Shown: positions 11,582-62,286, counted from the first letter of the stretch. The stretch: 64,000 bases of DNA from a virus (IMGVR_UViG_3300032579_000006), one strand, 5' to 3'. Made by a program: numbers and translations. The notes: generated by a model from the sequence alone, not told the origin.

Positions 11582-11641
11582 CGGAATTCTAATATGTAAA
11601 GACTAAATAAGAGTATATACCAGTTGGGTGAAAATACTCTT

Positions 11642-24595: not shown

Positions 24596-24736
24596 ACTAA
24601 TACTTATCAAAAAACCTTCGAAGGTGCGTCTAACCAAGGATTTTTTAATCCTACGCTAAATAAGTGTTAGAAACCTAGTGTTACTAGCATTAGGGGACAG
24701 GTGGTAAACCTCATAATTATACAAAGGAAAAATAAT

Positions 24737-35337: not shown

Positions 35338-35922
35338 ATGAATGACCCGTTATCCTTTTACGTATATGCATATCTTCGCAGCGACGGGACGCCTTATTAC
35401 GTCGGTAAAGGTAAGGGCGACCGAGCATGGAACCATAGTAGGTCTGATACCGTACATCCACCGCAGGATAAGCGAAAAATTATAATTTTGGAATCCGGGT
35501 TGACCAACTTGGGTGCTTTGACACTTGAACGAAGAATGATTCGTTGGTATGGGCGCATTGATTTGGGCACAGGTATACTTAGGAACCAAACTGATGATGG
35601 TGGTGATGGTGCATCTGGTGTCAAACAATCACAAGAAACGATAGCAAAACGAGTAGCCTCTTCCAAGGGAAAGGCTATGGGAATGACAGGAAAAAAACAC
35701 ACGGTTAAATCTAATGAACAACGTAGACTGTCGATGTTAGGTAAAAATACAACTCCTCATACTACGGAACGCAGATTGGCTAATTCTAGGTCAAAGCTTG
35801 GTATGAGATACAAATCACAATATATCCTTAATTGTCCACATTGCAATACTTCCGGAGGAAGTTCAAACATGAAGCGATATCACATGGATAATTGCAAACA
35901 CCTACAAAAGGTAATAGTATGA
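35338..35922 (+). CDS. GIY-YIG homing endonuclease
   Basis: [27 protein letters not shown] matches the GIY-(x10)-YIG core. ATAAATA lies at 35325-35331, 6 nt before the ATG. Confidence 0.7.
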
Positions 35923-38900
35923 GTCAACAGAACATAGATTTTGGTACTTTTCCAGACGATCCAAATGCGGATGCAATTCGTATTGCATTTCAAAAAACCC
36001 AGAATAACTTTAGTCAACTGTTTGACACGCTACAATCTCAATCAGTTTTATCTGTAAATAAATCTCAGGGCGCTGGAATTACTGTCAACTCTCCTACAGG
36101 AAATGTGGTAGTATCAGCTAATATTGCCTGTGTTCAGGTAACCAGCACTACATTAGCCGTCGGTATCAACGGGTCAAATAACTCCGGTAAATCAGGAGGC
36201 CTTGCAACAGTAACTAAATCTACAGACATTCTTCTAGTAGATTTACCATATGATGTTGCTAACATTAATAATATTACTGCTGCACAAACTATCACGGCAA
36301 ACGACATTGTAGCTAACAATTCCTTCACATCTACTTCATTTTCTGCTACTGGTAATGTGTCTGCAGGAAATCTATTTTCTACTGGTAACATCTATGCTAA
36401 TTCAGGCAATGCGAATGTATCAAATGTTAATGCGGGAAATGGTTACTTTACAGCGAACCTATCAGTAATTTCTAATGTTTCTGCTGGCAATGTTTATGCA
36501 AACTCAGGTACAGTGGGCGCAGCTACTGGTAATTTTTCTGGAAATGTTAATGCAGCTAATGCTAATTTAGGTAATACCGTAACTGCAAATTTCTTTAGCG
36601 GAAATGGATACTATCTTACTGGTGTAATTACTGCACCCGGACCTAAAATTGTTAATGGTGCTAGCTATACCAATATCGCTACTTCAGGTGGAAACGTAGT
36701 TACAGCGGTAAATGGCAACACAACATTTACGGTTACGTCGACCGGAGCTAATATATCTGGTACCTTAGGTGTTACTGGAAATATTACTGCCGGTAATCTC
36801 GACGGCGCCAATAGTGTTTTCGCTAATTATTTAACCGGAACATTAACTACTGCTGCACAACCGAACATCACATCAGTTGGTACTCTCTCTAGCTTAAGTG
36901 TTAATGGAACTGTTACGGCTCCCAACTTCACTGCTAATACAGGGGTGTTTACAGGTAATGGTAGCGGTCTATCATCTATTGCCGGCGCCAATGTAACCGG
37001 TGCAGTCGCATATGCTACAACTGCTAACTCGGTAGCCGGAGCCAACGTTTCAGGTACAGTAGGTAGCGCAACCAATGCAGCCGCAGTTCTTAGTAACTCA
37101 GCCTCAACTGGTACTTATTATATTCCATTCATATCATCAATCGCAAATGGTAACTATACACACGCATCAAATGCTAATTTCAGCGCAAATCTATCCAATG
37201 GCTATATCACAGCAACTGGTTTTGTAGGCACACTTAGTGGCTCTGCTACATCTGCAACTACAGCAGGTACAGTGACAACTAATGCACAACCAAACATCAC
37301 ATCAGTTGGTACTCTCTCTAGCTTAAGTGTTAATGGAACTGTTACGGCTCCCAACTTCACTGCTAATACAGGAGTGTTCACGGGTAACGCTAATGGATTG
37401 ACTGGAATTCCTGGAGCCAATGTCACAGGTGCAGTCGCATATGCTACCACTGCTAACTCAGTAGCAGGAGCTAATGTGTCTGGTGCAGTCGCATATGCTA
37501 CCACTGCTAACGCAGTAGCAGGGGCGAATGTTTCAGGTACAGTTTCTTCGGCTACGTCTGCAACTAATGCGTCCGCAGTATTAAACAACGTACAAACAAC
37601 TGGTACTTATTACCCAGCATTCATATCATCTACTGCTAACGGCAATTATGCGCACGCATCTAATAGTGCATTTAGTGCTAATTTTGCAAATGGTGCACTT
37701 TCTGCTACTACTTTCGTAGGTACATTAAGTGGTGCGGCCACTACAGCAGGCACAGTAACAACAAATGCACAACCAAATATTACATCGGTTGGCACTTTAA
37801 CAGGGCTAAATGTTAACGGTACAATAACTGCGCCTAACATCACTGCAAACACTGGTGTATTTACCGGTAATGGTAGTGGTCTGTCAGCTATTGCTGGCGC
37901 TAATGTTACTGGTACGGTTTCGAGCGCATCGACTGCAACTACTGCAACTACTGCGGGTACAGTAACGACGAATGCACAACCAAATATCACTTCAGTTGGT
38001 ACTTTAGCTAACTTAACAGTAGGAAACGCATCGGCCAATACTCAATTTGGAAATGGAACAATTAACGCCGCTGGTAATGTTCAAGCTGCAAACTTGATTG
38101 GTCCTCTCGCATCTGGTAATTCTAACGTTACTATCACTGCCAACAGCAACGTCAACATTTATGTTGCAGGTAATGCTACATCTCAATTAACAGTGACCTC
38201 AACTGGTGCAAACATCGCAGGTTATGCAACGGTTGCCGGTAATTTAACTTCAGCTAATGCAAACTTAGGAAACTTAGCAAAAGCTAATTACTTCCAAGGA
38301 GACGGCGGACTGTTAAGTAACATTACCGTTTCAGGGGGAACTTCTATTGTTAACGGTAATAGTAATATTGCTGTAGGTGCCAATAGCAACATTACGATGA
38401 GTGTTGCTGGTGTTTCCAATGTAATGGTAATTACCAGTACTGGAGCAAACATTACCGGAACATTAACAGTAGGAAACGTATCTGCAGGAAACATTACCGG
38501 TAATGTCACTACTGCTGCTCAAGGAAATATTACCTCATTAGGTACTCTTACAGGGTTAACTGTTGCTGGTCCCGTAAACTTAGGACCAGCAAGCAATCTA
38601 ACATTATCCGGTGGATCAGCTAATCAGCTACTTGTCTCTAACGGCGCCGGCGGCGCAGCATGGCAAACTGTAACTAGCTTAACCCTTGCTCCGGGCTCTA
38701 ATACACAAGTATTGTTTAACGATTCGGGTAGCTTTGCTGCAAACAGCGGTCTCACCTTTAACAAAACAACTGGAGCACTTACTGTTACTGGAAATGCTAA
38801 TACCGGTAATATTGGTGCAAACAATGCAGTGTTCACGTCTGTTACAGGTACGTTAACTACTAACGCACAACCAAACATTACTTCAGTTGGTTCGTTGACC

Positions 38901-40454
38901 TCGCTGATTGTAACTGGTAACATCAATTCTGGTAATATATCTGGTGGTAATTTAGTAAGTGCCAATTATTTCAGCGGTAACGGTAATGCACTGTCTAGTA
39001 TTCAAGGTGCAAATGTAACTGGTACAGTAGGTAGCGCGACCAATGCGGCCGCAGTTCTTAGCAATTCAGCATCAACTGGTACTTATTATATTCCATTCAT
39101 ATCATCAATCGCAAATGGTAACTATACACATGCATCAAATGCCAATTTCTATGCTAATTTGGCTAATGGATACATTACAGCAACCGGATTCGTAGGCACA
39201 CTGAGTGGCGCCGCAACATCTGCAACTACCGCAGGCACAGTAACGACGAATGCACAACCAAACATCACATCAGTTGGTTCGTTGACCTCACTGATTGTAA
39301 ACGGTAATATCAATTCTGGTAATATATCTGGTGGTAATTTAGTAAGCGCTAATTACTTTACTGGTTCTCATGCTAATGGTAACTCAAACATAAACATTCC
39401 ATCAGCTGATGGTAACATAAACTTTAGTAGTGCAGGTAATGCGAATGTTGTTGTAGTAACCGGGACAGGTGTCAATGTTTCTGGCACATTAAACGCAACC
39501 GGCTACGCGAACGTTGGTAACTTAGGTACCGCACAAGTACTTGCAACTGCAAACGTAACTGCTCCGCAATTAATCTCAAACATAGCAACAGGTACTGCAC
39601 CGTTCGCTGTATCAAGCACAACACAAGTTGCTAACTTGAACTCGCAATATGCAGGTACAGCTAACTCAGTAGCAGGTGCAAACGTAACCGGTGCAGTAGC
39701 GTATGCAACGACTGCTAACTCAGTAGCAGGTGCTAACGTAAGTGGTGAAGTTGGTCTTGCTACATACGCAACAACAGCAAACGCGGTAGCAGGTGCTAAC
39801 GTATCAGGTACTGTTGCTAACGCAAATAATTCTGCATATTTAGGTGGTACTGCGGCAGCAAGTTATCTATTAACAAACGGTACTGGTAGTGGTTTAACTG
39901 CAATTACTGGTGCAAACGTAACCGGCGCAGTTTCACAAGCAACAACTGTGATGGGTAACACTCAGAACAATATTAATACACTTGGTGCATTAACTACATT
40001 AAGTACAGGTGCAAACACTACATCAGGTACTATCACTGGTAACTGGTCATTAAGTGCAGGTTCAAAATTAGCCGCAACTTATTCTGACTTGGCAGAAAAA
40101 TATGTTAGTGATGCAGAATATGCTCCGGGTACAGTATTAGTATTTGGTGGTGAATATGAAGTGACATTAGCTAATACATTTGATAGTACACGTGTAGCAG
40201 GTGTAGTAACAACTGCCCCGGCTTACACTATGAATAGCGAATGTCAAGGTGAACATGTTGTTAACATTGCGCTACAAGGTCGTGTACCATGTTTAGTAAT
40301 GGGTCCGGTAAGTAAGGGTGACTTAATGGTTGCAGGTACAAATGGTCGTGCAGTTGCTAATAATGAAGCACGTGCAGGTACTATTATCGGTAAGTCATTA
40401 GAAAACTTTACAGGTACTGAAGGTATTATTGAAGTTGCTGTTGGTAGATTCTAA
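35919..40454 (+). CDS. long tail fibre with modular internal repeats and C-terminal intramolecular chaperone domain
   Basis: [14 protein letters not shown] modules repeated about 6 times. Internal perfect DNA repeats (36891-36960 = 37311-37380). The C-terminal 150 aa are homologous to the 11642-13741 fibre chaperone domain. The ORF track start is 35892. Confidence 0.75.
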
Positions 40455-40775: not shown

Positions 40776-41219
40776 ATGAACATATTTTTACAGGATTACT
40801 ATTTACGCCTCAAGGCGTGGCATGAACTTAGAGAAATCCTTAAGGACAAAGATTTGCAAACAATCTGCGTCGAGGTTGATAAGTTTTGGCAATGGGCACC
40901 TATTAGTGCCCATTATCTTCATCCAGATGACATAGAAGACTGGCCTAATCCATGGGAACTACTCAACGTGAATACTTACTGTCTATATGGTCGTGCATTG
41001 GGCATGATTTATACTCTTGTGTTATTGGGCGTACAAGACATTGACTTTGTTGAAGGAATAAGTGATAATGACAAAGATGTCATATTAGTTCTGGTTGATA
41101 ACGCAAAATATGTTATGAATGGTGGTATAGATACAGTGTTAAATACTGATCTTGCGTCGTTCGACATAAAGAAACATATCAACATAGATCCATTGACACA
41201 GAAGATAGGCAAGCAATGA
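40776..41219 (+). CDS. small protein, paralog 2 of a tandem pair
   Basis: TATAATA, then 6 nt, then ATG, with no SD. Confidence 0.45.
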   Translation: MNIFLQDYYLRLKAWHELREILKDKDLQTICVEVDKFWQWAPISAHYLHPDDIEDWPNPWELLNVNTYCLYGRALGMIYTLVLLGVQDIDFVEGISDNDKDVILVLVDNAKYVMNGGIDTVLNTDLASFDIKKHINIDPLTQKIGKQ

Positions 41220-42871
41220 CAATTAATGTAACAAAAAGATCAGGAATAATCGAACCCCTACAACTAGAAAAGTGGCAGTCGCAAATCGCTAAAATTTGTA
41301 GCGGCATCGCTGACATTAGCCAATCGATGATTGAAATCAAAGCTTCTCCTCATTTTTTTGATGGCATTACTACTAGAGAAATTGACGAGCTAACCCTGCG
41401 CGCAATAGTAGACCTAATTGATATTGAATCTAATCCGGACGTTGGTCATACCAATTACCAATTTGTGGCAGGTAAGCAAAGACTGTCTATGTTGCGCAAA
41501 GACGTATATGGACAATTTCAGCCGCCGCATCTTTATGAGATAGTAAAGAAGAACGTAGAAGTAGGGCTGTATACATCTGAACTGCTTGATTGGTATACGG
41601 AAGACGATTGGAATAAAATGAATGAAATGCTTGACCATGAAAAGGATGAGCAATATTCATATGCGGCGATTGAACAATTAGTAGAAAAGTATCTAGTTCG
41701 CAACAGAGCAACTAAAGAAATCTACGAAACTCCACAAGTTAGATACATGATCGCCGCCGCGACGGTTTTTCACAGCGAAGAACCTAATACAGCCAGAATG
41801 CGATATATTAAGGAATATTATAATGCTGCGAGTGATGGGCTTTTTACTCTTGCTACTCCTGTGCTTGCTGGCCTTGGCACTCCTACTAAACAATTTAGTA
41901 GCTGCGTTCTTATTCGTAGCGACGATGATCTAGATAGCATCTTTGCTTCCGGAGAGATGATGGCAAAGTATGCGAGCAAGCGTGCTGGTATTGGACTAGA
42001 GATAGGAAGATTGCGTTCATTAGGTTCGCCAATTCGCGGCGGAGAAATCATGCATACCGGTATGATTCCTTTTCTAAAGAAATGGTTCGGAGACCTCCGT
42101 TCGTGTTCTCAGGGAGGAATCAGAAACGCATCCGCCACTGTCTTTTATCCTATCTGGCATCACCAATTCGATGACCTAATTGTATTAAAGAATAATCAGG
42201 GAACCGAAGAAACCCGTGTTCGTCATATGGATTATGGCGTTGTTCTCAGTGCATTCTTCTGGCGCCGATTCAAGAATAAGGAAAACATCACCTTCTTTGA
42301 TCCAAATGAAGTTCCAGATTTATATGAAGCGTTCTATAAGAACACAGCAAAGTTTGAAGAACTTTATGTAAAGTACGAGAAACGTAAAGACCTTCGTAAG
42401 AAGACAATGAGTGCTGAAGAAGTGTTTAAGGGAGGCATACTAAAGGAACGCACAGACACTGGCCGCATCTATTTGGTCTTTATCGACAATGTTATGAAGC
42501 AAGGCCCGTTCGATCCTGAGTACCATACTATATATCAATCTAACCTTTGCTGTGTAACCGGTGAAACACAAGTAACTTTCTTGCACGAAAACGGCAACAC
42601 AGAACAAATGTCTGTTTCTAGTGCTGTGGAAAGATTTGAATTAGGTAATTTAACTACTTCAAAGATTAAAAGTTTTAAGAATGGTGAAGTTTCCTGGGAA
42701 AATATTTCTGCGGCAATTAAAACTAAAACAGTCACCGAACTGTATGAAATTGAAGATGAAAACGGTAATGTATTGAGATGCACAGGAGACCATCGTGTTT
42801 TTACTAAGAATAGAGGTTATGTAAGAGCCGATGAATTAGTTGAAACTGACGAGTTATGTGTTGAAATTTGA
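41216..42871 (+). CDS. nrdA: ribonucleotide reductase class I alpha subunit, N-terminal extein fused to an N-terminal split-intein half
   Basis: ATP cone (VTKRSGIIEPLQLEKW). The catalytic-site approach ends ...YQSNL(C) and is followed by intein block A (CVTGETQV) and block B (TGDHRVFT), then a stop. The tail RCTGDHRVFTKNRGYVRADELVETDELCVEI is nearly identical to the published NrdJ-1 N-intein tail. Confidence 0.85.
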   Translation: MTINVTKRSGIIEPLQLEKWQSQIAKICSGIADISQSMIEIKASPHFFDGITTREIDELTLRAIVDLIDIESNPDVGHTNYQFVAGKQRLSMLRKDVYGQFQPPHLYEIVKKNVEVGLYTSELLDWYTEDDWNKMNEMLDHEKDEQYSYAAIEQLVEKYLVRNRATKEIYETPQVRYMIAAATVFHSEEPNTARMRYIKEYYNAASDGLFTLATPVLAGLGTPTKQFSSCVLIRSDDDLDSIFASGEMMAKYASKRAGIGLEIGRLRSLGSPIRGGEIMHTGMIPFLKKWFGDLRSCSQGGIRNASATVFYPIWHHQFDDLIVLKNNQGTEETRVRHMDYGVVLSAFFWRRFKNKENITFFDPNEVPDLYEAFYKNTAKFEELYVKYEKRKDLRKKTMSAEEVFKGGILKERTDTGRIYLVFIDNVMKQGPFDPEYHTIYQSNLCCVTGETQVTFLHENGNTEQMSVSSAVERFELGNLTTSKIKSFKNGEVSWENISAAIKTKTVTELYEIEDENGNVLRCTGDHRVFTKNRGYVRADELVETDELCVEI

Positions 42872-42904: not shown

Positions 42905-43840
42905 ATGTATAAAGAACTTTATAAGACTATAATTGACAACGCAAGAAAAGAAAACAGAATGAGAAATCAAGGAACATATTATGAACGACACCATATCGTT
43001 CCTGATTTCTTGTACAAGAACAGAAAGAGAACAGGACCAAACGGGCATCTAGACGGTAATCCAGATAGCGCGGAGAATTTAATTCTATTGACTTTTTCCG
43101 AACACTTAATGGCTCATTACTACTTGTATGAGATTTATAAAGGAACTCGTTATGAATACTCTGCTGGTTCTGCCCTGCAATTCTTTTTTGTAAAAGCGAC
43201 AGGCAACCACAAACGACAAATTAATTTGTCAGATGTTGATGAAAAGTTTCTTAAAGAAATGGAACACTTAAGACTACTAGGCAATGAATGTATTAGTAAG
43301 GCAAGAAAAGGAAAGATGCCTGTTGTCGATGCTGTGACTAGAGAAAAAATAGGATCAGTCTCCGTAGATCACCCTAAAGTTTTATCAGGGGAATGGGTTC
43401 ATCATAGTAAAGGCGTTCCTGGAAAGTCTGCAAGAGATATGTCTGGTTCTAAAAATACTAACTTTAAGGAATTAACTCAGGATCGAAGAGAAAGAATGTG
43501 GAAATGTGTGTCTGAATCTTGTCAAGAGGGTTACTTGAAGTTACACTTATTGCAGGATAATATGAAAAAAGAATTTGTAGAGTTTAAGAAAATTTCATTG
43601 GCGTGGATAGGCAAAAAGTTTGGATCTTTAGAAAATCTAATAAACGAAACGAATAAGAACTTGAATCTAAACATCAAATATAATCCATATCATAGAAGCG
43701 CAGAGCAACGACGGGTTGCAGCAGAACACTCAAAAAAACATCGATGGTACAACAACGGCGTACAAAATGTAAGAGTCACAGACGAAGAAGAATTTTGTAA
43801 ACATAATCCAAATTATGTATTAGGAAGAATAAAAATATGA
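42905..43840 (+). CDS. free-standing HNH homing endonuclease lying between the two intein halves
   Basis: YYERHHIVP...NLILLTFSEHLMAH HNH core. Paralog of the 44982 gene. The start lies in a CATATG...CATATG hairpin. Confidence 0.75.
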   Translation: MYKELYKTIIDNARKENRMRNQGTYYERHHIVPDFLYKNRKRTGPNGHLDGNPDSAENLILLTFSEHLMAHYYLYEIYKGTRYEYSAGSALQFFFVKATGNHKRQINLSDVDEKFLKEMEHLRLLGNECISKARKGKMPVVDAVTREKIGSVSVDHPKVLSGEWVHHSKGVPGKSARDMSGSKNTNFKELTQDRRERMWKCVSESCQEGYLKLHLLQDNMKKEFVEFKKISLAWIGKKFGSLENLINETNKNLNLNIKYNPYHRSAEQRRVAAEHSKKHRWYNNGVQNVRVTDEEEFCKHNPNYVLGRIKI

Positions 43841-44925
43841 TTAAAATTAAAAAAATTAAAGTAGAACCAACCGATGTATATGACTTATCTGTGCCTGAAA
43901 CAGAATGTTTCTTTGCTAATAACATATTAGTTCATAACTGCGAGATCCTACTACCTACAAAGTCATTCAAGAGACTAGATGATGAGGCCGGCCGAATTGC
44001 GCTGTGTACCTTAGGGAGTATTAATTGGGGTGCGTTCCGTAACCCAGAAGATATGCGCCGAGCATGTCGTATTCTACTAAGAAGTCTGAATAACATTTTG
44101 GATTATCAAGACTTCCTTTCTATTCAGTCTAAGTTATCGAATGACGAGATTCGTCCAATCGGTATCGGTGTAACTAATCTCGCATACTGGCACGCTAAGC
44201 GCGGATATAAGTACGGAGACTCAGATGCACTACAGGACGTAAAGAGTTGGGCAGAACACCAGACTTACTACCTCATGGAAGCAAATGTAGAATTGGCAAA
44301 AGAGCGTGGAAAGTGCATTGACTCTGACAAGACCCGCTATGGTCAAGGAATCTTTCCCTGGGAACTTAGAGCCAATGGTGTAAACGAGCTAGCAGACTTT
44401 AATCCTGAGCTTGATTGGGAATCACTACGATTTGAAATGAAAGAGTATGGTGTGCGAAACAGCACAGTTGGTGCCATTGCTCCGGTTGAATCTTCATCTG
44501 TTGCCATTAATTCAACTAATGGTATTGCACTACCAATGAGTTTGATTTCTGTTAAGGAATCAAAAGCGGGATCCTTCGTGCAAGTTGTCCCAGAATATCA
44601 TAATATTAAGGTCAGAAAGAATTATCAGTTGATGTGGGATCAGGTTGATTGCGTCGAGTATCTTAAGACCTCTGCTGTTCTTGCTGCATACATGGATCAA
44701 TCAATTTCAACTGATACGTTCTATAATCCAGCACATTTCCCTGATCGCAAGATACCAACTACGCTAATTGCTAAAAATTTGATGCTAGCACATAAGTTCG
44801 GTCTCAAGACGCTTTATTATAGCCTCGTGTGTAAACAAGGTTCTAAAGAAGAAGCCGACGATGCACCTCTTATGCCTATAGACTTTTTTGAAGATGAAGA
44901 TTCCTGCGAGAGTTGTAAGTTATAG
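43837..44925 (+). CDS. nrdA: C-terminal split-intein half fused to the ribonucleotide reductase alpha C-terminal extein
   Basis: MIKIKKIKVEPTDVYDLSVPETECFFANNILVHN|CEILLPT: intein blocks F/G with terminal HN and +1 Cys. Splicing would restore the SNLCEILLP thiyl-radical site. Confidence 0.85.
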   Translation: MIKIKKIKVEPTDVYDLSVPETECFFANNILVHNCEILLPTKSFKRLDDEAGRIALCTLGSINWGAFRNPEDMRRACRILLRSLNNILDYQDFLSIQSKLSNDEIRPIGIGVTNLAYWHAKRGYKYGDSDALQDVKSWAEHQTYYLMEANVELAKERGKCIDSDKTRYGQGIFPWELRANGVNELADFNPELDWESLRFEMKEYGVRNSTVGAIAPVESSSVAINSTNGIALPMSLISVKESKAGSFVQVVPEYHNIKVRKNYQLMWDQVDCVEYLKTSAVLAAYMDQSISTDTFYNPAHFPDRKIPTTLIAKNLMLAHKFGLKTLYYSLVCKQGSKEEADDAPLMPIDFFEDEDSCESCKL

Positions 44926-52370: not shown

Positions 52371-52689
52371 TCGATTTGCATTTGGAGTCGGAATCCTTGG
52401 TATAATTTATTTTGGACTCCATCTGATGGTATCCTTAGTATTTCACCGCACACTAATGTAACGGAGATTTAACATGTGTGACGAATGTGACTGTGAGCAC
52501 AAGACTATGGATTTTGATGGTTCTACTACCGAAAGTAAGAATCCAACAATTCTTTTTTGGAATAGACTAGGTATGGCTGCTATTATCTTCTCGCTCTGTA
52601 TGGGCATTGGGTGCTGCACAGCAATTGCCAACCTTCATCAATAGTTATTATTTAAATAGTTAACATAAATATACTCACATATAAGGAGT

Positions 52690-53532
52690 ATGTTTATGAA
52701 AAAGTTTTTTGCAGTAGTATCAATACTGCTAATATCTCTATGTCTTTATGATACAAGCTACGCATTTACACCTCGCGCACCTTTGCCTATTGCGAGTTGT
52801 TCAGTACATGCACCTTTTGGACCGCCGCAAAGCACTAAACCAGTTCAATCTATATGCCGTCAGGCATATCTGGTTGGGTATGACGCTAGTTCAAAAATAC
52901 CAGAATACGTAGAGTGGACACTTACTCCGCAAGCTGCGTTAGGTTGTGTTGTGCGATCAAATGCATTTACCGCTGACCCATCTATAGCAGGCGGAGCAAC
53001 GCCTAACGACTATGCAGGCTCCGGTTACGATAAGGGCCACATGGCGCCCGACGGCGACCAAAGTTGGAATCAACAAGTTGAGTATGAGTCATTTCTAATG
53101 ACTAATATGACACCTCAGGCTCCTTCTCTCAATCGCGGGATTTGGAAATTGTTAGAAACTTCCTTTCGTGGTTGGGCGTTCCAACAGAACCGTCCATTCA
53201 CCGCAATTTCCGGAGCAATCTATGCAGCTGGAGATAAAAAGATTGGGTCCGGCGTCGTTGTGCCTCATGCGTTCTACAAGATTGTCATTGATGATCAAAC
53301 TGGAATGGTAGCAGGTTGGTATTTCCCTCATACGGCTCCGTATCCTAATTTAGGAAACGATCTAACTAAGTATCGTACATCTATTGCCGCTATTGAAAAG
53401 GAATCAGGTGTAATTGTAGCATTACCTAAGAATGCTCAGGAACTTCCGGTAGGAAAAGAATGGCCGGTTGATTTTGGTAAACTGACTGCTTCTAAGAAGG
53501 CAGCATGTGGACCAAGTGCGAGTGTAGACTAA
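52690..53532 (+). CDS. secreted DNA/RNA non-specific endonuclease (Serratia NucA / Endonuclease_NS family)
   Basis: Signal peptide MFMKKFFAVVSILLISLCLYDTSYA. Active-site motif DKGHMAPD (the DRGH box). ATAAATA about 22 nt upstream plus an AAGGAG SD. Confidence 0.75.
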   Translation: MFMKKFFAVVSILLISLCLYDTSYAFTPRAPLPIASCSVHAPFGPPQSTKPVQSICRQAYLVGYDASSKIPEYVEWTLTPQAALGCVVRSNAFTADPSIAGGATPNDYAGSGYDKGHMAPDGDQSWNQQVEYESFLMTNMTPQAPSLNRGIWKLLETSFRGWAFQQNRPFTAISGAIYAAGDKKIGSGVVVPHAFYKIVIDDQTGMVAGWYFPHTAPYPNLGNDLTKYRTSIAAIEKESGVIVALPKNAQELPVGKEWPVDFGKLTASKKAACGPSASVD

Positions 53533-53706: not shown

Positions 53707-54018
53707 TTGCTAAACAAAAAAATCCACATAACCCTAAATCAAGGCCAACCAATCGTGAGTGATTCCGAAAGCAGACTTAAGAAATCTAAACGTAGAGCAG
53801 CGGCGAACACCGCAGCCAAGAAACAATACAGTATCGCAAAATCACATGGAATGAATCCTGATCCTAACAAAATGCATCGGTACGCAAAAATGCATTCTTT
53901 GAATTGCGGAGATCCAAATTGTATGATGTGTGGAAATCCTCGTAAGTTTTTCAATGAAATAACTATGCAGGAGAAAAAATTTATTGATGGTGTCGATTTT
54001 GGGTACAAAGACGATTGA
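53707..54018 (+). CDS. basic protein with C-terminal zinc-ribbon-like CGDPNC..CGNP
   Basis: TTG start in the ORF track; the true start is uncertain. Confidence 0.3.
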   Translation: MLNKKIHITLNQGQPIVSDSESRLKKSKRRAAANTAAKKQYSIAKSHGMNPDPNKMHRYAKMHSLNCGDPNCMMCGNPRKFFNEITMQEKKFIDGVDFGYKDD

Positions 54019-54346
54019 CTTTACGTCTAGTCGCTGATAAATTGTAGTTATCGATACAGAGAAGGCTCTGTACGAAACTAAGAGGCTACCTGTGAATAAG
54101 AAATCAGTATATGGTTTTCTAATCGAGTTCATCAAGGGTTTTGCAGTAGTTATGGTTCCTCTTATGTTATGGTTCCTCTTATTTGGTTCCGTGCTATCAT
54201 GCCCTGGATGATTAACATTCACAACGACTTCGCGATCTTCGGCGCACTGCTGGGAACCATGCTCGTTGTGATTCTTACCGCAACACTAATCATTGAATTT
54301 GTGTTCAATATTATCAAACAACCTCAATCAAAGGACTAATCAAACT

Positions 54347-55195
54347 ATGAATAACATTAAGACGGTTCTTATCGTCGGTGCTGCCGCTGCGGCTCTTGCT
54401 GCATGTGGTCAAGTGCAACCCGGATATGTTGGCCTTAAGGTTAATCAATATGGTTCAGGTTCTGGTGTTGACCCTAATGTTCTAGGTGTCGGTACGTATT
54501 TTACCCCAATGGGAACTCAAATTATCGAGTTTCCGGTTTATACTCAGCAATATATCTACACCGCTTCTAAGAATGAAGGCAAGGCTGTCAACGAAGAATT
54601 TACGTTCAATGACAAGCAAGGTCTGAATATGGGTGCCGACATTGCTGTAAGCTATTCGGTTGACTCTAGCAAGGCTCCGGTTCTTTATCAGAAGTTCCGC
54701 TCTACTGCCGAAGGTCTTGTCGAAAATCAAATTCGTAACGAAATTCGTAACGATCTGAACGACATTGCTTCTGCCTATGCGGTCGATGAAATCTTCGGTC
54801 CTAAGAAGAAGGAACTGTTGGATAAGGTGCAGGTTGAAGTCGCTGCTCACTTCAAGCCTTACGGTCTGAACATCGAGCGTCTGACTTGGGCGAATACTAT
54901 TCGTATGCCCCAATCGATTCACGATCAAATCAACCAACGTATCGCTAACGAACAGCAAGCTAAGGCTGCTGAGGCTAACGTGATCACGGTTGAAGCCAAT
55001 GCTCGCTCTGCGGTTGCTAAGGCTAAGGGTGAAGCTGATGCTAACGCACTGCTTGCTCAATCGATTAAGGCTAGCCCAGAACTCGTCAAGCTTCGTGCGA
55101 TTGAAGCCTGGAAGGAAACTGGTGGTAAGATGCCGACTTATGTTGGCGCTGGGGCTGAAATCCCGATCATCGGCAATCTGATGAAGGGTAACTAG
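54347..55195 (+). CDS. SPFH/band-7 domain lipoprotein
   Basis: Lipoprotein signal MNNIKTVLIVGAAAAALAAC. SPFH-like body (prohibitin/stomatin/HflC family pattern). Confidence 0.6.
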   Translation: MNNIKTVLIVGAAAAALAACGQVQPGYVGLKVNQYGSGSGVDPNVLGVGTYFTPMGTQIIEFPVYTQQYIYTASKNEGKAVNEEFTFNDKQGLNMGADIAVSYSVDSSKAPVLYQKFRSTAEGLVENQIRNEIRNDLNDIASAYAVDEIFGPKKKELLDKVQVEVAAHFKPYGLNIERLTWANTIRMPQSIHDQINQRIANEQQAKAAEANVITVEANARSAVAKAKGEADANALLAQSIKASPELVKLRAIEAWKETGGKMPTYVGAGAEIPIIGNLMKGN

Positions 55196-55196
55196 T

Positions 55197-55481
55197 ATGG
55201 CCCGCATGCTATCGATGATTATCGGGCTTGCTTCTATCGTGGCGCTAGCGGGGTGTAATAAACCCGCTAGCGGTTCGTTTGTTCAGCAAGGCTCTGATAC
55301 ATCAAGCGATCCTTCAATCCCTGCTGATTACAAGCTAGCTAATCCATGCCCACCAGGAGTTCCTTCGGTTTACTTGCGCCCGGACGGGTCTTACGTGGTC
55401 AAGAACTCAGAAGATCATGATAACTTTATTGTGATCGCTCAGACACCAGAAGATTTCTGTAAGTCTTTCCAAAAGAACTAG
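55197..55481 (+). CDS. small lipoprotein
   Basis: MARMLSMIIGLASIVALAGC lipobox. Coupled to the upstream gene (TAGTATG). Confidence 0.45.
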   Translation: MARMLSMIIGLASIVALAGCNKPASGSFVQQGSDTSSDPSIPADYKLANPCPPGVPSVYLRPDGSYVVKNSEDHDNFIVIAQTPEDFCKSFQKN

Positions 55482-55545
55482 TTATACATAATATGTGCTA
55501 AATACTTGACAATAAGAGGATTATTGCCATTTAGGACATAAAAAA

Positions 55546-58500
55546 ATGAAGCACGCGAAGGCTATTTTACTAGCAGTTACCGCTATAGTTTCCACACTCA
55601 CACTCACAGCTTGCTTTACATCTAGACAACAAACTGCAAACGCAGAAAATATTCCAAACAATCCTGACTACAATTGGGACGTTCGTCCGATTTTGTCACA
55701 AAATTGCTTTGCTTGTCACGGGCAAGGAACACAGAAGGCTGGTCTACGGTTAGACATACAAAAAGCCGCTTACGATTCCATACCAGAAGACAAAACCAAA
55801 CACGCTTTTGTTCCGGGTAATCCTAGTAAAAGCGAGGCATTTAAACGCATTACTTCGACTGATGCAGACTACAGAATGCCACCTAAAGATTCTCATAAAA
55901 CCCTGTCTGCACATGAAATCGCAATTATAAAGCGATGGATTGAACAAGGTGCTCACTATAAACAACACTGGGCATACATAACACCGACAGTAGTAAAGCC
56001 AGAAAGAACTAAATGGGACAAGCAAGCTGTCAACGCCATTGATCGATATATCTATGCCAAATTAGCTACAGAAGGGTTATCTCCTTCTGCGGAAGCGGAC
56101 AAAGAAACGCTTATAAATCGTGTTTATCTAGACCTAACTGGACTTCCTCCCTCGCTTCAAGAAGTAGATGCATTTATCAATGACACCTCTCCTAATGCTT
56201 ACGAGAAGATAGTAGATCATCTTTTATCATCTACCGAGTATGCAGAACGCCAAACAAATATTTGGATGGATGTTGCTCGGTATGCAGACAGCCGCGGAGG
56301 ACTAAATGACGGGGAACGAGGAATCAGTTTCCCGTATCGTGATTGGGTCATCAATGCGTTTAAACGCAACATGCCTTATGATGAGTTTGTGACCTGGCAG
56401 CTTGCCGGCGATAAACTTAATAATGGTCATCCGACTCGTGAGCAATTACTTGCAAGTGCCTTCCTTAAAGAAGGTCGTCAAGATTCAGAGGGCGGATCAA
56501 TTGATGAAGAATTTAGAACTAATTATGTCCAAGAAAGAACAGAATTAATAGGTAAAGACTTTTTGGGTCTAACCGTTGGGTGCGCCAAATGCCACAATCA
56601 CAAATATGATGTGATTGCCCAATCAGATTACTATTCATTAGCTGGATTCTTTAATCAGATGGACGAGCGAGGACAAGGATCCGGTTCTCGTGGTACACCC
56701 GGCGGCGCCACAATCGAATGGCCGACTCCGCTGCAATCAAAAAGACTTGAGGCCGCCCATGCAATTACAGTAGCTAAAGAACAAGCTTATCAAGTTGCTT
56801 TACAATCTGCGCAGATCAATAAAATAGCATTAGACACAAACCGAACAACATTTATACAATCATCTATTCAAGCAGACACACAAGCCTATTATCCATTAGA
56901 TGCAGGGTACAAAGATTCATTTGATGAACTGTACCTAGATCCGCAACCAACGGCACCTGGTGAACCTCTACCTAATCAAAAAAATAACTTTCCCGGATTA
57001 ACTGCGGCTCAAGTTACTGCCATATTACAAAATAAAATTCTTGCAGATGTAAAGGTCGGTAAACCAACTCCTAGTATGACACCTAAAGATGATTCTATGT
57101 CTCCTAAAACCATCAAGTCTTCAGATATAAAGGACCCTAAAAAAGCACCCCTTCGCCGCTCACGATTCGGCGGTATGGACGGAGACATTGCTGCAATGAA
57201 GGCGGACCCTAATCTTCCGAGAATAGCTTCTCATGAAATCGATTGGGCTATGGAACAGCTTGTAGCATCCGGATTTACTGATGATCGTTTAGGAGACCCA
57301 CAACGTATCATGAAACGTCAACTTCCACAATGGATTCATGAAGATTCACTGTTGTGGACAGATGCAGGGATTCAGGGTGAAAAGCGTGGATTTGTAAGTA
57401 ATGTAAAGTTTGTTTCCGGTCACAAGGGACAGGGAATTCAACTAAAAGATTCAGTTTTTGCTGCGGACAAAAGTGTAGGTATGTTTGAAAGAACTCAACC
57501 ATACACATTAGATTTTTGGTTGAAGCTTCCAAAGAAACCATATTACGACAATACTCGTCCATTAGGACCGTCTGCATCTATAATTTATAACAACGGCGGC
57601 ATTGAAGGGCTTGGTTATGAATTAACCATGTCTAATAATAAAATGGCATATTCTATTACTCACCAAGCTCCAACCGACATGCTTAGAATTTCTACGATTC
57701 AAGATGTTCCCACAGGTCGTTGGGTTCATATAACTTCTACTTATGACGGTAACTCCAAAGCGGCTGGTATGCATCTATATTTTGATGGTGTAGAACAAAA
57801 AGCTCAAATTGATCATGACCACTTAACACGTAGCGCATTTCCGCGCGGCGGAAACAGTCAGTTTGTGAGTTATTTTGGGTTGTCTGCTGGAGTTAACTTT
57901 AATAGACCGGAATTAGTAGACGGCGCCATTGATGAGCTACGTGTGATTACACGGGCATTGACTCCTACGGAAATTACTTATCTGCAGGATCCTGCACTAC
58001 TTAAACAAGTTCCGGCACAGCAAGCAATATCTGATATGAAGTTAATTATGGCTGAACTGGATCCTGCGGTTCAACGAGCCTGGCAAGAGATGACAGATGC
58101 ACGACTTGCTGAACAACGCATAGAAACTCCGATCTATCGTGTCATGGTTGCAGGAGATCAGGCTATTCCTCGTAAAAACTTCGTGTTAGATCGTGGGGTC
58201 TATAACAGCTATCTACAAGAAGTAAAACCTCAGGCACCGAACCGAGTATTTGCATGGAACGAAACTTTACCTAGAGACCGTTTGGGACTAACTGAATGGA
58301 TGTTTGATCCGAAAAATCCGCTCGTTGCTAGGGTTTATGTAAACCGCATATGGCAAAATCATTTCGGTACTGGTATAGTTCAAACGGTAGATGATTTTGG
58401 TACACAAGGAACTAATCCAACTCATTCGGAACTACTTGATTACCTAGCCGTAGAGTTTATTAGGTCTGGTTGGGATATAAAGCACATACAAAAACTAATA

Positions 58501-59217
58501 GTTATGTCTGCAACTTATCGTCAAAATTCTAATATTACGCATGACGCATTAGAAAAAGATCCACGAAATTTTCTTCTAGAACGAGGACCACGTTTTAGAA
58601 TGCCAGCAGAAGTTATTCGTGATAATGCATTAGCTGCCTCTGGTCTGTTACTTAAGAAAGTGGGCGGAGATGCAGTATTCCCATATGCTCCAGATGCAAT
58701 TTGGGATGGTGTAGCGCAAGGTGCGGTTATTTATCCTACAAATGAACCGGATGATCAAATGCACAGACGATCTATGTATACCTATATAAAGCGGAACTCA
58801 CCAGTAGCCAACTTAGTACCGTTTGACATGCCAGATCGCTACAATGCACAAGTTCTACGTCCAGTGTCAACTACACCTCTGCAATCATTGGTTATGTTGA
58901 ATGACGTTCAATTTATGGAAGCTTATCGTAAGCTATCTGAAAGAGCAATCAAGTCTTCTGCAAATCAAGATCAACAACTGATAACGATGTTCCGTTTGGC
59001 TGTTCGGCGCCATCCAAATGATAATGAACTATCAGTATTGAGGAAATATCGTGTTGCTGAAATTAGCAGAATGCAGAATTCCCCTGATGAAGTAAAAAAG
59101 ATACTTTCTATGGGGGTTTCTCCTACCGATACTTCGATTGATCCGGCCCAACTCGCAGCAATGACTATGGTCACTGCAAGCGTCATGAATACCCCAGACG
59201 CATATACTTTGCACTAA
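55546..59217 (+). CDS. PSCyt1 (cytochrome c CxxCH) - DUF1549 - LamG - DUF1553 protein, lipoprotein signal
   Basis: LTLTAC lipobox. NCFACHGQG...LRLD is the PSCyt1 signature. [10 protein letters not shown]...[15 protein letters not shown] matches DUF1549. The LamG-like middle is GFVSNVKF...YFDG. [41 protein letters not shown] matches DUF1553. Confidence 0.8.
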   Translation: [1223 protein letters not shown]

Positions 59218-59228
59218 GAGGAATAAAC

Positions 59229-60692
59229 ATGAATAATGATCCAAATGAATTAATAAATTTTGCCCGCCGGTCACTTTTAGGCACGAGTATGGGATTGGGT
59301 GTGATAGCCGGCGCCGAATTATTAGGTGCTACCAAATCACAAGCAGCCAGTGCTGCACCTTCCAGCGAGACTGGCCCAGATTTAGGTAAGTTAACTACAG
59401 GTCAATTTCCAGCAAGAGCAAAGCGTGTAATTGACATTCACATGAAAGGAGCAGTATCCCAAATTGATACTTTTGATTATAAGCCAGAAGTTATCAAGCG
59501 CCATGGGCAAGAAATTCCACCTTCTGTAAAGGGTCATGGCAAAATATCATCAATGTCTAATGGACAAACTTCTTTCCCTCTTATGGGTCCTATTGCTCCA
59601 TATAAACAATATGGTCAATGTGGTCGTTGGGTTTCAGACCTAATGCCACATATAGGGTCTATATCAGATGATCTAACCTTCATTCATTCTATATGGACTC
59701 CCCAAGTTAATCACGATCCAGCAGACATTCTCATGCATACTGGGTTTCAATTAGCGGGCCGCCCTGCCGCTGGAGCATGGGTTAATTATGCATTAGGGAC
59801 TGATAACTCTAATCTCCCTTCATATGTAGTCATGAAATCTCAGTTCCAATCAGCAGGGGTTGGCGCTACTCAGGCTACTTGGTCAGCAGGATTTTTGCCC
59901 TCTAATCACCAAGGTGTTGAATTTCGTTCTGGTAATTCTCCTGTTCTTTATGTAAGCAATCCAGATGGCATTAGTCGTGAAGAACGAAGAAGTCAAATTG
60001 ATCTTATCGGTGAATTATCGCGCTATCAGTATCAGACGACCGATGACCCAGAAGTCTTAGCCAAAATTGCTCAATATGAAATGGCATATCGTATGCAAGA
60101 TTCTGTACCTGAGGTAACTGATCTATCTGATGAACCACAATATATACTCGATATGTATGGTCCTCAGGTTCATCAACCAGGTAGCTTTGCTCGCAATTGC
60201 CTATTAACACGTCGTCTTATTGAACGCGGTGTTAAGTATGTCAACCTAATTCAAGTTGGATGGGATCACCATAATGGTATTGCCCGCCGACATCCTAGTG
60301 ACTGTTGGGCAGTAGATCAGCCATCTGCTGCTTTGGTGACGGATTTAAAGCAGCGAGGACTTCTAGATGATACTCTTGTAACTTGGAAGGGTGAATTCGG
60401 TAGAACTGTATACGCGCAAGGAGGAATAAATCCAAACTGCGGGCGTGACCATCACGGAGGAAACTTTACGATGTGGATGGCCGGAGGCGGAACAAAACCT
60501 GGCATCGAATACGGCAAATCAGATGATTTCTCTTATAATGTTGTGGAAAATCCAGTAGAAGTTCACGATTTAAATGCTACTGTGTTATATCTTTTAGGAA
60601 TTGATCACAAACAACTTACATACCATTATCAAGGTAGAGATTTCCGTTTAACTGATACTGCAGGTAAAGTAGTTCAAGGAATAATTGCTTAA
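59229..60692 (+). CDS. DUF1501 (sulfatase-like superfamily) protein with twin-arginine signal
   Basis: RRSLLGTSMGLGVIAGA Tat motif. DUF1501 hallmarks FIHSIWTPQVNHDPA and GRDHHGGNFTMWMAGGGTKPG..YGKSDDF. Confidence 0.8.
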   Translation: MNNDPNELINFARRSLLGTSMGLGVIAGAELLGATKSQAASAAPSSETGPDLGKLTTGQFPARAKRVIDIHMKGAVSQIDTFDYKPEVIKRHGQEIPPSVKGHGKISSMSNGQTSFPLMGPIAPYKQYGQCGRWVSDLMPHIGSISDDLTFIHSIWTPQVNHDPADILMHTGFQLAGRPAAGAWVNYALGTDNSNLPSYVVMKSQFQSAGVGATQATWSAGFLPSNHQGVEFRSGNSPVLYVSNPDGISREERRSQIDLIGELSRYQYQTTDDPEVLAKIAQYEMAYRMQDSVPEVTDLSDEPQYILDMYGPQVHQPGSFARNCLLTRRLIERGVKYVNLIQVGWDHHNGIARRHPSDCWAVDQPSAALVTDLKQRGLLDDTLVTWKGEFGRTVYAQGGINPNCGRDHHGGNFTMWMAGGGTKPGIEYGKSDDFSYNVVENPVEVHDLNATVLYLLGIDHKQLTYHYQGRDFRLTDTAGKVVQGIIA

Positions 60693-60695
60693 GGC

Positions 60696-60724: not shown

Positions 60725-60791
60725 TCGTTACATAAGAGTTATGCGCGCCTGAGGCTGAATGGTTTCACAAGAGTCTCTAAAGCTCAAGATT

Positions 60792-60819
60792 GCAGGTTCA
60801 AATCCTGTCGGGCCCGCCA
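60792..60819 (+). ncRNA. tRNA 3-prime portion only (T-arm GCAGG-TTCAAAT-CCTGT, acceptor 3-prime strand CGGGCCC, discriminator G, CCA); no matching 5-prime half
   Basis: A perfect tRNA T-arm and CCA end. The required 5-prime acceptor strand GGGCCCG (or a GU-tolerant variant) is absent in the 120 nt upstream. Confidence 0.45.
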
Positions 60820-60868
60820 CTCTTAAAATATATCTTGACTCCGTATACACCTTATAATAATGTGACTT

Positions 60869-61174
60869 ATGGACATGATCACACAAGAACTGAAATCGCT
60901 GCACGAGGAATTCACTTCCCGTGTTTTTCAACTGCGTCTGGTTGACGGTGTTCGACGTGATTGGGCAGTTTCTTGGGCTCTGCTGCAAGATCAAAGTCCC
61001 GACTATGCCGAATGCTATGTTCCTCCGATCTTTCCGATTAAAGGACAAGACCTGCTGGAAACTGGTATGAAGCCTGGCAAGGAAGTTGGTCAACGGCTGC
61101 AAGTCATGCGTGATGCTTGGGTTAAATCTCGTTTTACTATGACTAAGGAAGACCTGCTGTCCCATAATAATTGA
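60869..61174 (+). pseudogene. cca: C-terminal fragment of a CCA-adding enzyme / poly(A) polymerase family protein
   Basis: PIKGQDLLETGMKPGKEVGQRLQVMRDAWVKSRF...KEDLL parallels the C-terminal tRNA-binding region of bacterial CCA enzymes (e.g. ...NGKDLMQLGYKPGKQMGEILKKLEEAVLDGEI...). The nucleotidyltransferase head domain is missing. Confidence 0.45.
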
Positions 61175-61224
61175 CATATACTGCATTAAGTTGTAGTATA
61201 TGTCATTATTATAAAGGAGACATT

Positions 61225-61758
61225 ATGAGTGCTGACCTTCCTACGCTAGTCCCTAGCGTAGTCTTTAAGACTCGGGTTCGTGACGATAGTATCGAAGGAC
61301 CCAATCCATATCGCTGGCAAGAAGTAACTTCATTTGACTATTTCGCAGGAAAGCGAGTTGTGCTATTTGCGCTGCCTGGAGCATTTACCCCTACTTGCTC
61401 TACTTACCAACTTCCGGGTTTTGAAAATAACTATCAACAATTTAAGGATTTGGGTATTGACGAAATCTACTGCTTGTCAGTGAACGATTCGTTCGTCATG
61501 AACAAGTGGGCTCAAGACCAAAATCTAAAGAACGTTAAGGTTATTCCGGATGGTTCTGGTGAATTCACTAGCAAGATGAACATGCTTGTTGCTAAGGATA
61601 ATTTGGGTTTCGGTGTTCGTTCTTGGCGATATGCGGTAATCGTTGACAATGGACGCATTGAAAAGTGGTTTATTGAACCTGGCATCGAACACAATTGCGA
61701 TACGGATCCCTACGGTGAATCTTCACCTGAAAACATCCTCGTATATCTGAAAAACTAA
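61225..61758 (+). CDS. peroxiredoxin, Prx5-like (AhpC/TSA family)
   Basis: FALPGAFTPTCS peroxidatic Cys motif. AAAGGAGA SD 6 nt before the ATG. The ORF track start is 61171. Confidence 0.75.
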   Translation: MSADLPTLVPSVVFKTRVRDDSIEGPNPYRWQEVTSFDYFAGKRVVLFALPGAFTPTCSTYQLPGFENNYQQFKDLGIDEIYCLSVNDSFVMNKWAQDQNLKNVKVIPDGSGEFTSKMNMLVAKDNLGFGVRSWRYAVIVDNGRIEKWFIEPGIEHNCDTDPYGESSPENILVYLKN

Positions 61759-62286
61759 CAACCGCGGACAAGCTTCGCATAAAAAAAGAAGAGGAAACCC
61801 GCATCATCTTTCTCTACGGTAGTGCAATACATAAGGCACTAGAGCGCAATGAATTCCAACATACTCCTTTTAAAACTACGACAGGAGGATGCGGTAATCC
61901 ATGGGTAGTGTGTGATATGCTCGATAAGCAGGAAGTTGTATTTGCCCTATTGAAATACGATTTTCGAATCATGACGCCCAACGAACCTCTCTACAAAGAA
62001 TACGATAAACGAGCCAAAACACTAGATTACGATGAAGCAGATTGGATTGATGAAGATGAAGACCTGTAAAATTTTCGTACCAACCTAGGTTTTCCATCAA
62101 ATTAATAAGGCAATACGAGAATCGGGAATCAAACACCTGCCGTATCAAAAAAAGTTTGATGGGTACAACATTGAATTTATGACTAATGATCATCCTCTAA
62201 TTTGTTATCTTATTCTTAAATACGACGTGAAATATGAAATATGAAATATGAAATGTCATAAATATACACAGTATGAAAGATTCAGT

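Follow-up and report, generated by a model that had tools for sequence, protein, structure and literature searches.

An AT-rich freshwater phage, probably a jumbo phage, carries a PSCyt/PSD1 and DUF1501 gene pair apparently captured from Caulobacteraceae

What does a phage do with a pair of exported proteins whose genes otherwise sit in bacterial chromosomes, and where did it obtain them? These questions are raised by a 64,000-nucleotide stretch of viral DNA (IMGVR_UViG_3300032579_000006; hereafter the window), in which a gene for a large lipoprotein with PSCyt1, PSCyt2 (DUF1549) and PSD1 (DUF1553) domains is followed by a gene for a DUF1501 protein. The original prediction saw in this cassette a hallmark of Planctomycetes/Verrucomicrobia-type (PVC) bacteria and proposed that it was either an auxiliary cassette in a phage of a PVC-type host or the sign of a prophage-host junction. 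Our best explanation, which we consider probable as a whole, is that the phage encodes an intact pair captured from Caulobacteraceae, and that this pair has been recoded, is under selection and performs a host-like role in the periplasm. The cassette comprises three elements:

55546-59217, plus strand, gene for a 1223-aa lipoprotein with PSCyt1, PSCyt2/DUF1549, a low-complexity linker, a LamG/ConA-like jelly-roll and PSD1/DUF1553
59218-59228, plus strand, 11-nt spacer between the cassette genes; the Shine-Dalgarno sequence AAGAGGA overlaps the upstream stop codon
59229-60692, plus strand, gene for a 487-aa protein with a twin-arginine translocation (Tat) signal and an alkaline-phosphatase-superfamily metalloenzyme fold

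Both open reading frames (ORFs) lie on the plus strand exactly where they had been predicted, and a hidden Markov model search against Pfam recovered all of the features named beforehand (lipoprotein, PSCyt1 with CxxCH, DUF1549, LamG, DUF1553 and Tat-signal DUF1501). In the 1223-aa protein the families PF07635, PF07583 and PF07587 follow one another in the order PSCyt1 (residues 54-115, 3.8e-15, 56.7 bits against a gathering cut-off of 22), PSCyt2/DUF1549 (residues 165-373, 1.3e-78, 264.2 bits against 29.8) and PSD1/DUF1553 (residues 911-1168, 2.9e-89, 299.1 bits against 28.5), every score being well over its cut-off; Laminin_G_3 matches residues 646-810 (1.2e-16). The translation contains the lipobox LTLTAC and two CxxCH motifs, CFACH at residues 54-58 within PSCyt1 and CAKCH within PSCyt2. 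Both motifs are invariant in an alignment of 64-65 homologs and are putative c-type heme sites. The 487-aa protein spans the complete DUF1501 model (PF07394, positions 1-390 of 390, 3.3e-147, 491.1 bits against 27). Its N-terminus, FARRSLLGTSMGLGVIAGAELLGA, includes the twin-arginine motif FARRSLLG, a motif reading with no predictor score, in which R13 is nearly invariant and R14 invariant among 73-74 aligned homologs. All family-invariant residues in these two alignments are retained in the window copies. The large protein is encoded immediately upstream of DUF1501 in the window and in 15 of 15 bacterial loci inspected, and the overlap of the Shine-Dalgarno sequence with the upstream stop codon makes translational coupling of the two genes likely.

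The AlphaFold2 model of the large protein (pLDDT 77.5, pTM 0.75) finds counterparts in the PDB for the LamG part only, where the jelly-roll resembles lectin-like toxin-binding domains and the carbohydrate-binding domain of an arabinanase; as a clue to PSCyt2 and PSD1 the fold search was uninformative. DUF1501 has the core alpha/beta fold and the metal-binding Asp and His residues of the alkaline phosphatase superfamily, with an NPP/PafA-like core, conserved D/H clusters (WDHH and RDHH) and a conserved serine, S77. It is not an S1-type sulfatase by motif, because the formylglycine motif C/S-x-P-x-R occurs nowhere in the 487-aa sequence, and the match to an arylsulfatase reaches only E 0.12 over the C-terminal part. 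Identity to NPP/ENPP, PafA, PhoK and the S1 sulfatases is 10-14%, and in contrast to the characterized enzymes of the superfamily, DUF1501 is Tat-exported and obligatorily paired with a heme-motif lipoprotein.

The window is part of an uncultured freshwater myovirus, probably a jumbo phage, of the Atu_ph07/Phosso/PA5oct lineage. The genes at 0-52 kb encode a giant tail sheath, a tail tube, fiber-like proteins, a primase, a DnaB helicase and a class Ia ribonucleotide reductase (RNR). The nearest cultured relatives are the jumbo myoviruses Atu_ph07 (Agrobacterium), Phosso (Sinorhizobium) and the PA5oct group (Pseudomonas), with 40-48% amino-acid identity in the tail sheath, a virion protein and the DnaB helicase; these phages are likewise AT-rich relative to their GC-rich hosts, with a large tRNA complement and many homing endonucleases. 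The closest isolates measure 287-490 kb and a syntenic IMG/VR relative 360,683 bp. Exact copies of the DUF1501 protein turn up in 43 blocks of a public sequence collection, three of them with contigs of the 0.2-1 Mb class. Beyond the window end, the retrieved loci continue with homing endonucleases of the HNH and GIY-YIG types, a PTH2-like hydrolase and a tRNA array:

L001 16673-21337, 7-12 kb past the window end, tRNA array (15 genes), with HNH and GIY-YIG (SegE-like) homing endonuclease genes and a PTH2-like peptidyl-tRNA hydrolase gene among the tRNAs

Genuine phage genes therefore flank the cassette on both sides of a single contiguous molecule, so that the predicted status of a phage-carried auxiliary cassette is borne out. 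No homolog of either protein was found in 50,697 GenBank phage records (tblastn with both proteins), Atu_ph07, Phosso and PA5oct among them, no PHROG family was found for the cassette proteins, and a single-protein pattern scan of IMG/VR for DUF1501 gave no match. An alignment-based scan of IMG/VR returned one contig only, L175 (IMGVR_UViG_3300026064_000011), a prophage-host junction in a planctomycete-like genome. There the PSCyt/PSD1 and DUF1501 pair lies in the host flank, at 63-66% GC and beside GlnA, PALP and DUF1570 genes, and the adjoining prophage, of lower GC, carries a terminase; this contig is a caution for counts of auxiliary metabolic genes (AMGs) drawn from IMG/VR. Contigs of ~485-570 kb with homologs were rejected as megaphages, since their GC of 66-69% and their gene contexts are those of bacterial chromosomes. 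P0047, raised by an amino-acid composition search as a diverged phage-borne copy, is also bacterial (GC at third codon positions, GC3, 0.92). The cassette is the first of its family to be found in a phage, in line with the novelty originally claimed for it. Host-derived accessory genes were already known in jumbo phages; it is the DUF1501/PSCyt-PSD1 family that is new to them.

The same evidence bears on the proposal that the window turns into bacterial chromosome from about 52.7 kb on, through a prophage-host junction or a chimeric assembly. The cassette family is otherwise chromosomal and L175 is exactly such a junction, but the genes to its left and right are members of phage families and keep their order in related jumbo phages, and phage genes, a tRNA(CUA), homing endonucleases and the 15-tRNA array continue downstream. 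Seven independent assemblies (JGI, Logan and ENA) repeat both joins with 99.9-100% identity and zero codon differences within the cassette, which speaks against a chimeric join. No integrase flanks the cassette, and a search for direct and inverted repeats bounding it gave no convincing att-like or transposon-like ends. Nor is there a GC or tetranucleotide break across the region, and codon usage is phage-like, with a GC3 of 27%, against 85-96% for every bacterial copy. Because of the phage flanks, the matching assemblies and the unbroken composition, we regard the junction as refuted and this whole explanation as extremely improbable.

Quantitatively, cassette GC is 42% and GC3 27-30%, similar to the sheath and fiber genes of the phage, whereas GC3 of the nearest bacterial copies is 74-96%. 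Tetranucleotide content of the cassette correlates with that of 0-52 kb at r = 0.869, where 5-kb windows of the phage itself give 0.838 +/- 0.081 and bacterial cassettes -0.56; for relative synonymous codon usage, r is 0.79 for the cassette and -0.52 to -0.55 for bacterial cassettes. The AT-rich composition noted at the outset is thus confirmed by codon usage and tetranucleotides alike. A phage-like Shine-Dalgarno sequence, also noted at the outset, is present, although that between the cassette genes derives from the donor junction by an AT-shift.

The recoding is complete. Where the amino acid is the same, the codon chosen by the phage agrees with that of the nearest bacterial homolog at a frequency of 26%, against a codon-bias expectation of 24%. 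For DUF1501 the synonymous distance (dS) to the nearest bacterial gene is saturated, with a nonsynonymous distance (dN) of 0.065, and 12 of its 487 sites differ from the >=80% consensus of the bacterial proteins, a count within the 2-16 of the bacterial members themselves. The large-protein domains are 77-90% identical to those of bacterial P0122, and the linker, at about 60%, has drifted and shortened. Complete recoding of an essentially unchanged protein points to long residence in the phage under strong purifying selection, as judged from these comparisons, and hence to a function for the phage. That the phage protein stays within the range of bacterial divergence argues for retention of the host biochemical function and against a new one. 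The locus is a clean case of complete codon amelioration under purifying selection, with GC3 going from about 90% to 27% at a protein identity of about 91%.

Where the pair came from can be read from both genes and from the junction between them. The DUF1501 protein is 90.8% identical to P0001 on bacterial contig L174 and 85-88% identical to proteins of Caulobacteraceae metagenome-assembled genomes (MAGs). The PSD1 homologs nearest to the window share 76-83% identity, the closest lying on the same contig, L174. The contigs with the nearest homologs have 59-69% GC and many are labeled 'Caulobacteraceae bacterium' at NCBI; the copies are chromosomal, in the company of ThiG/ThiS, AccB/AccC, TonB-dependent receptors and MarR. 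Among 185,579 species representatives of GTDB, identities were 81% for a Caulobacteraceae MAG, 68% for an unclassified proteobacterium, 58-60% for Gammaproteobacteria and 48-53% for PVC, Bacteroidota and Acidobacteriota homologs. As a taxonomy check that is independent of labels, we used AccC, encoded 300 bp upstream of the bacterial cassette on the 352-kb contig L008; all of its named matches are to Caulobacteraceae (93-94%) or Phenylobacterium (88-89%). A neighbor-joining (NJ) tree, of the kind suggested in the original prediction for finding the donor clade, places the window DUF1501 as sister to bacterial P0001, nested in a Caulobacteraceae-type group. Finally, the gene junction reads TAGGAGGGATGGACATG in the bacterium and TAAGAGGAATAAACATG in the phage, with the 11-nt spacer and the stop-overlapping Shine-Dalgarno sequence common to both; architecture and length match L174 and L011, and G-to-A changes are the sole differences. 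Since both genes are nearest to L174 and the junction is inherited, the pair was taken up in one piece from a high-GC, Phenylobacterium-like member of the Caulobacteraceae.

A capture from a PVC host that the phage itself infects was the alternative proposed at first. The bacterial module of DUF1501 with PSCyt1/PSCyt2/PSD1 (and Laminin_G_3) has been described by Kamneva et al. 2012 (PMC3542564) and He et al. 2017 (PMC5615132), and is most abundant in PVC genomes; freshwater Verrucomicrobia rich in PSCyt genes inhabit similar lakes. Against this stand the 48-53% identity of PVC homologs compared with 81-91% for Caulobacteraceae copies, the fact that the two genes, like their junction, trace back to one type of alphaproteobacterial contig, and nearest cultured phages that all grow on Proteobacteria. 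With the nearest homologs chromosomal in Caulobacteraceae, as AccC confirms, a PVC-type host is very unlikely. The description of the module as a PVC hallmark stands insofar as PVC genomes contain it, but it is not confined to them, being widespread in Bacteroidota, Acidobacteriota and some Proteobacteria. The published PVC-specific view is therefore at odds with a Caulobacteraceae donor, and the module is no longer a marker of a PVC host, a point of consequence when hosts are predicted from auxiliary genes. In domain architecture, gene order, export signals and the 11-nt coupled junction the phage version equals the bacterial module (proteins 76-91% identical to those of Caulobacteraceae); it differs in being virus-encoded with viral codon usage (GC3 27%) and in its shorter linker (1223 aa in total, compared with about 1270-1310 aa in bacteria).

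We infer that the donor lineage is also the host lineage. It is conceivable instead that the cassette left Caulobacteraceae by way of another phage or a co-infecting element and that the present host is some other proteobacterium. The 42% GC of the phage is far from the 64-69% of the donor, and a further AT-rich copy, L172 (described below), groups with a different bacterial sublineage, so that transfers into AT-rich genomes recur. However, gene capture requires co-residence in one cell, the export signals and the heme-attachment motif demand compatible Tat, Lol and cytochrome c maturation (Ccm) machinery in the host, and the proteins are still about 90% identical to donor-clade copies. The GC disparity has a precedent in Atu_ph07 (38% GC) and Phosso (49% over 41 kb), jumbo phages that are AT-rich themselves and infect GC-rich alphaproteobacteria; their hosts have about 59-62% GC, and a 42% GC phage on a host of ~65% GC would be a similar case. 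On balance a host other than the donor lineage is distinctly unlikely.

In donor-clade bacteria DUF1501 is often followed by a third gene, for a protein of ~505-530 aa with PSCyt1 and leucine-rich repeats (LRR):

PSCyt1-LRR third gene: L010 11563-13077; L011 5438-6988; L094 11127-12701; L095 11627-13222; L173 2303-3862

TonB-dependent receptors are also frequent neighbors of the donor-clade pair. The phage has neither the third gene nor a TonB-dependent receptor beside its cassette.

A second AT-rich copy of the cassette was found on a 2302-bp contig (P0032/L172, Logan SRR12983742; GC3 28%). Its DUF1501 shares 84% protein and 73% DNA identity with that of the window. Ancestry common to the two copies after amelioration was considered and rejected: the same-codon frequency of 0.426 is at the codon-bias expectation of 0.421, the copies appear as sisters in 0 of 200 bootstraps (by NJ on simple distances, which is not a rigorous test), and they have no derived residues in common. 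The L172 PSD1 fragment is no nearer to the window copy than to bacterial ones, and for the flank of the contig no match was found in the window or in related phages. These results suggest a second, independent capture by another AT-rich genome, on a contig too short to be called phage.

The cassette is a ~5.2-kb insertion (about 55482-60695) in a hyperplastic accessory slot. The IMG/VR relatives L184 (360,683 bp), L183, L182 and L186 have the same synteny without it, with the shared order orf975, nuclease, o103, a variable stretch, tRNA(CUA), peroxiredoxin and, further on, RimK, the proteins being 59-79% identical. L186 has the Band7 lipoprotein and the 94-aa lipoprotein, then 55 nt and the tRNA, and the window cassette falls exactly between the last two genes. 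The features around the insertion are these:

52690-53532, plus strand, Endonuclease_NS with a Sec signal peptide (Pfam 3.8e-37; phrog_14168), conserved, upstream of the variable slot
54347-55195, plus strand, Band7/SPFH lipoprotein (Band_7 1.7e-25; phrog_200 'lipoprotein' 1.4e-64; lipobox AALAAC)
55197-55481, plus strand, 94-aa small lipoprotein (lipobox IVALAGC), left border of the insertion; positional homolog in L186 at 3455-3739
55482-55545, plus strand, left junction, intergenic; boundary set by comparison with L186
60696-60724, plus strand, sigma70-like promoter TTGACA-17-TATTAT (11 of 12 matches in the promoter scan), directly after the cassette, driving the tRNA
60745-60816, plus strand, tRNA with anticodon CUA (amber-suppressor type) and encoded CCA, right border (Rfam RF00005, 34.6 bits against a gathering cut-off of 29)
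61225-61758, plus strand, peroxiredoxin (Pfam Redoxin 2.4e-27; phrog_2281 1.4e-67); orthologs directly after the tRNA in L184 and L186
62248-63183, plus strand, RimK-family ATP-grasp ligase (phrog_2599; Pfam/NCBIfam), closing the variable slot; probable true start 62287

The nuclease is 72-75% identical in L184, L182 and L186, the Band7 start at 54347 is also that of the public gene calls, and RimK is 77-79% identical in the IMG/VR relatives, in alignments that begin at residue 14. Orthologs of the tRNA(CUA) lie upstream of the peroxiredoxin in L184 (8160-8234) and L186 (3794-3868), where ARAGORN and Rfam both find them; the window copy is missed by ARAGORN and scores above threshold with Rfam. 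TAG serves as stop codon in 12 of the 73 window ORFs, with no sign of recoding. The peroxiredoxin was considered as a CcmG/TlpA-like helper of cytochrome maturation and rejected: it is an ordinary peroxiredoxin/phrog_2281 match and is present in relatives that have no cassette.

Gene content in this hyperplastic region varies among close relatives, as would suit a neutral passenger, that is, a recent acquisition without use to the phage and heading for loss. Complete amelioration implies long residence, yet the 5.1 kb of the two ORFs are free of interruptions, no invariant residue has been lost, and dN is only 0.065 where dS is saturated. Moreover, a variant of the same phage, L007 (ENA ERZ28594139), has clean deletions at window positions 53877-55399 and 60751-61182 that remove Band7, the 94-aa lipoprotein, the tRNA and o101, fusing o103 to the 3' end of the 94-aa lipoprotein gene and the 5' end of the tRNA to the peroxiredoxin promoter; the flanking genes went and the cassette stayed. 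We see next to no chance that the pair is a passenger.

What the pair might do for the phage is best approached from what the bacterial copies would do. Under our preferred reading, the cassette would be transcribed by host RNA polymerase outside the late regulon, given a TTGACA -35 hexamer and no late-type ATAAATA motif. Both proteins would then be exported by the host Sec/Lol and Tat systems to act jointly in the periplasm, where, by analogy, the phage pair would do the job of the host copies, topping up or replacing host protein during infection. DUF1501 would be a metallo-hydrolase of the alkaline phosphatase superfamily, with its partner supplying a lectin-like LamG domain and c-type heme sites. 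The TonB-dependent receptors beside the donor pair, the predicted hydrolase fold and the LamG domain lead to the guess that esters are processed in the periplasm. More speculatively, the pair may cleave phospho- or sulfo-esters on an imported glycan or organic ester, and such cleavage could yield phosphate (or sulfur or carbon) for replication of a very large genome. A stronger version, which we hold to be doubtful, is that the module is a self-sufficient periplasmic nutrient-scavenging unit, one that would cleave esters of organic substrates imported through TonB and so release phosphorus or sulfur, captured independently at least twice by AT-rich Caulobacteraceae phages; two captures are proposed because the window and L172 copies have no derived residue in common and group with different bacterial sublineages. 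If true, the pair would be the first two-gene AMG exported by Tat plus lipoprotein routes, and it would offer the first functional handle on a family with dozens of copies per PVC genome.

The chief competing function starts from the neighborhood. By their predicted signals, five consecutive genes encode exported proteins (Sec nuclease, Band7 lipoprotein, 94-aa lipoprotein, PSCyt/PSD1 lipoprotein and Tat-DUF1501), and such an island could remodel the envelope or exclude superinfecting phages, changing the periplasm or a glycan at the surface and thereby blocking adsorption or injection. The cassette proteins are, however, no further from the bacterial consensus than their orthologs are, which favors an unchanged host function, and searches with defense-system models gave no match to known defense families. 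In addition, the relatives keep the nuclease and the lipoproteins without the cassette, which is therefore not integral to the island. We consider the exclusion role unlikely, and continue to prefer a periplasmic function like that of the bacterial pair.

Several points weigh against this preference. The literature on DUF1501, DUF1553, DUF1549 and DUF1800 gives the module and its signals and no functional data, and no solved structure was found for either family; the only co-mention of 'phage' in that literature is a weak CDD match in a 61-aa ORF. A simple hydrolase model leaves the heme/cytochrome part unexplained, as does the exclusion model. Lacking the third gene, the phage pair may depend on a host copy or may not recapitulate the full system. 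The donor need not be the host, and the nearest bacterial copies come from samples other than that of the phage. The poor -10 element and a failed consensus scan upstream of the cassette leave expression timing to be estimated indirectly. Finally, the jumbo genome size is deduced from contig size classes and relatives, the window covering only 64 kb.

The cassette can be set beside known systems of host-derived phage genes. Cyanophage psbA, phoA and pstS are auxiliary metabolic genes of host origin. As in those cases, the pair is host-derived, lies among phage genes, is ameliorated with a protein kept host-like, and occupies a hyperplastic region of a T4-related genome; it differs in being a two-gene periplasmic module that needs Sec/Lol, Tat and cytochrome c maturation, and for which 'metabolic' would be a deduction. 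The module is among the most heavily duplicated systems in Planctomycetes, Verrucomicrobia, Bacteroidota and Acidobacteria, described in 2004-2012 and with no experimental handle since. That the phage kept exactly two genes, with all synonymous sites recoded and the proteins unchanged, argues that the pair is the minimal functional unit. Its retention further argues that the pair works in an alphaproteobacterial periplasm and is of rapid benefit, as phages keep only what pays per infection cycle. The accessory repertoire of jumbo phages thereby gains a periplasm-targeted gene pair that draws on three export pathways, an unusual design.

Regulatory signals around the cassette are consistent with expression outside the late program. 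The left junction has a perfect -35 hexamer (TTGACA, 55506-55511), a weak -10 element and AGGA 9 nt before the ATG; the promoter scan made no strong call upstream of the cassette, and no ATAAATA motif precedes it. That motif does precede the flanking genes, as had been pointed out, at 52665 for the nuclease and at 62258 for the probable rimK start at 62287. By count ATAAATA is not over-represented in the window (25 copies, 20.7 expected). Its placement is another matter: 17 of the 20 plus-strand copies are intergenic, intergenic DNA making up 5.8% of the window, and 13 copies lie 5-60 nt upstream of gene starts, where 1.09 are expected. The plus-strand sites, which include 28405, 30281, 31089, 31592, 32076, 35325, 42881, 44957 and 52665, mark many structural genes. 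The motif looks like the T4-type late-promoter element TATAAATA minus its first T, although some copies are just 12 nt from an ATG, oddly close for a promoter.

Other features of the window deserve brief mention. The peroxiredoxin promoter (TTGACA-17-TAGTAT, 61171-61205) lies inside a hairpin with a 14-bp stem, TGACATATACTGCA...TGTAGTATATGTCA, and one L007 deletion endpoint falls here. It recalls the promoter-stem-loop cassettes that have been suggested as drivers of modular shuffling in the hyperplastic regions of T4-type phages. Two ORFs, at 41216-42871 and 43837-44925, make up the RNR large subunit and are separated by a homing endonuclease gene (42905-43840; phrog_655/HNH), a split like those of T4-type phages. 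The tail sheath (24701-28363) has 1220 aa and is much longer than typical; ~56% of it aligns to the PA5oct and Atu_ph07 sheaths, in two pieces, which implies a large lineage-specific insertion. Lastly, the proteins encoded at 11624-13741 (705 aa) and 35892-40454 (1520 aa) have in common a C-terminal domain of ~110 aa, with matches to the fiber-related families phrog_22593 and phrog_19602.

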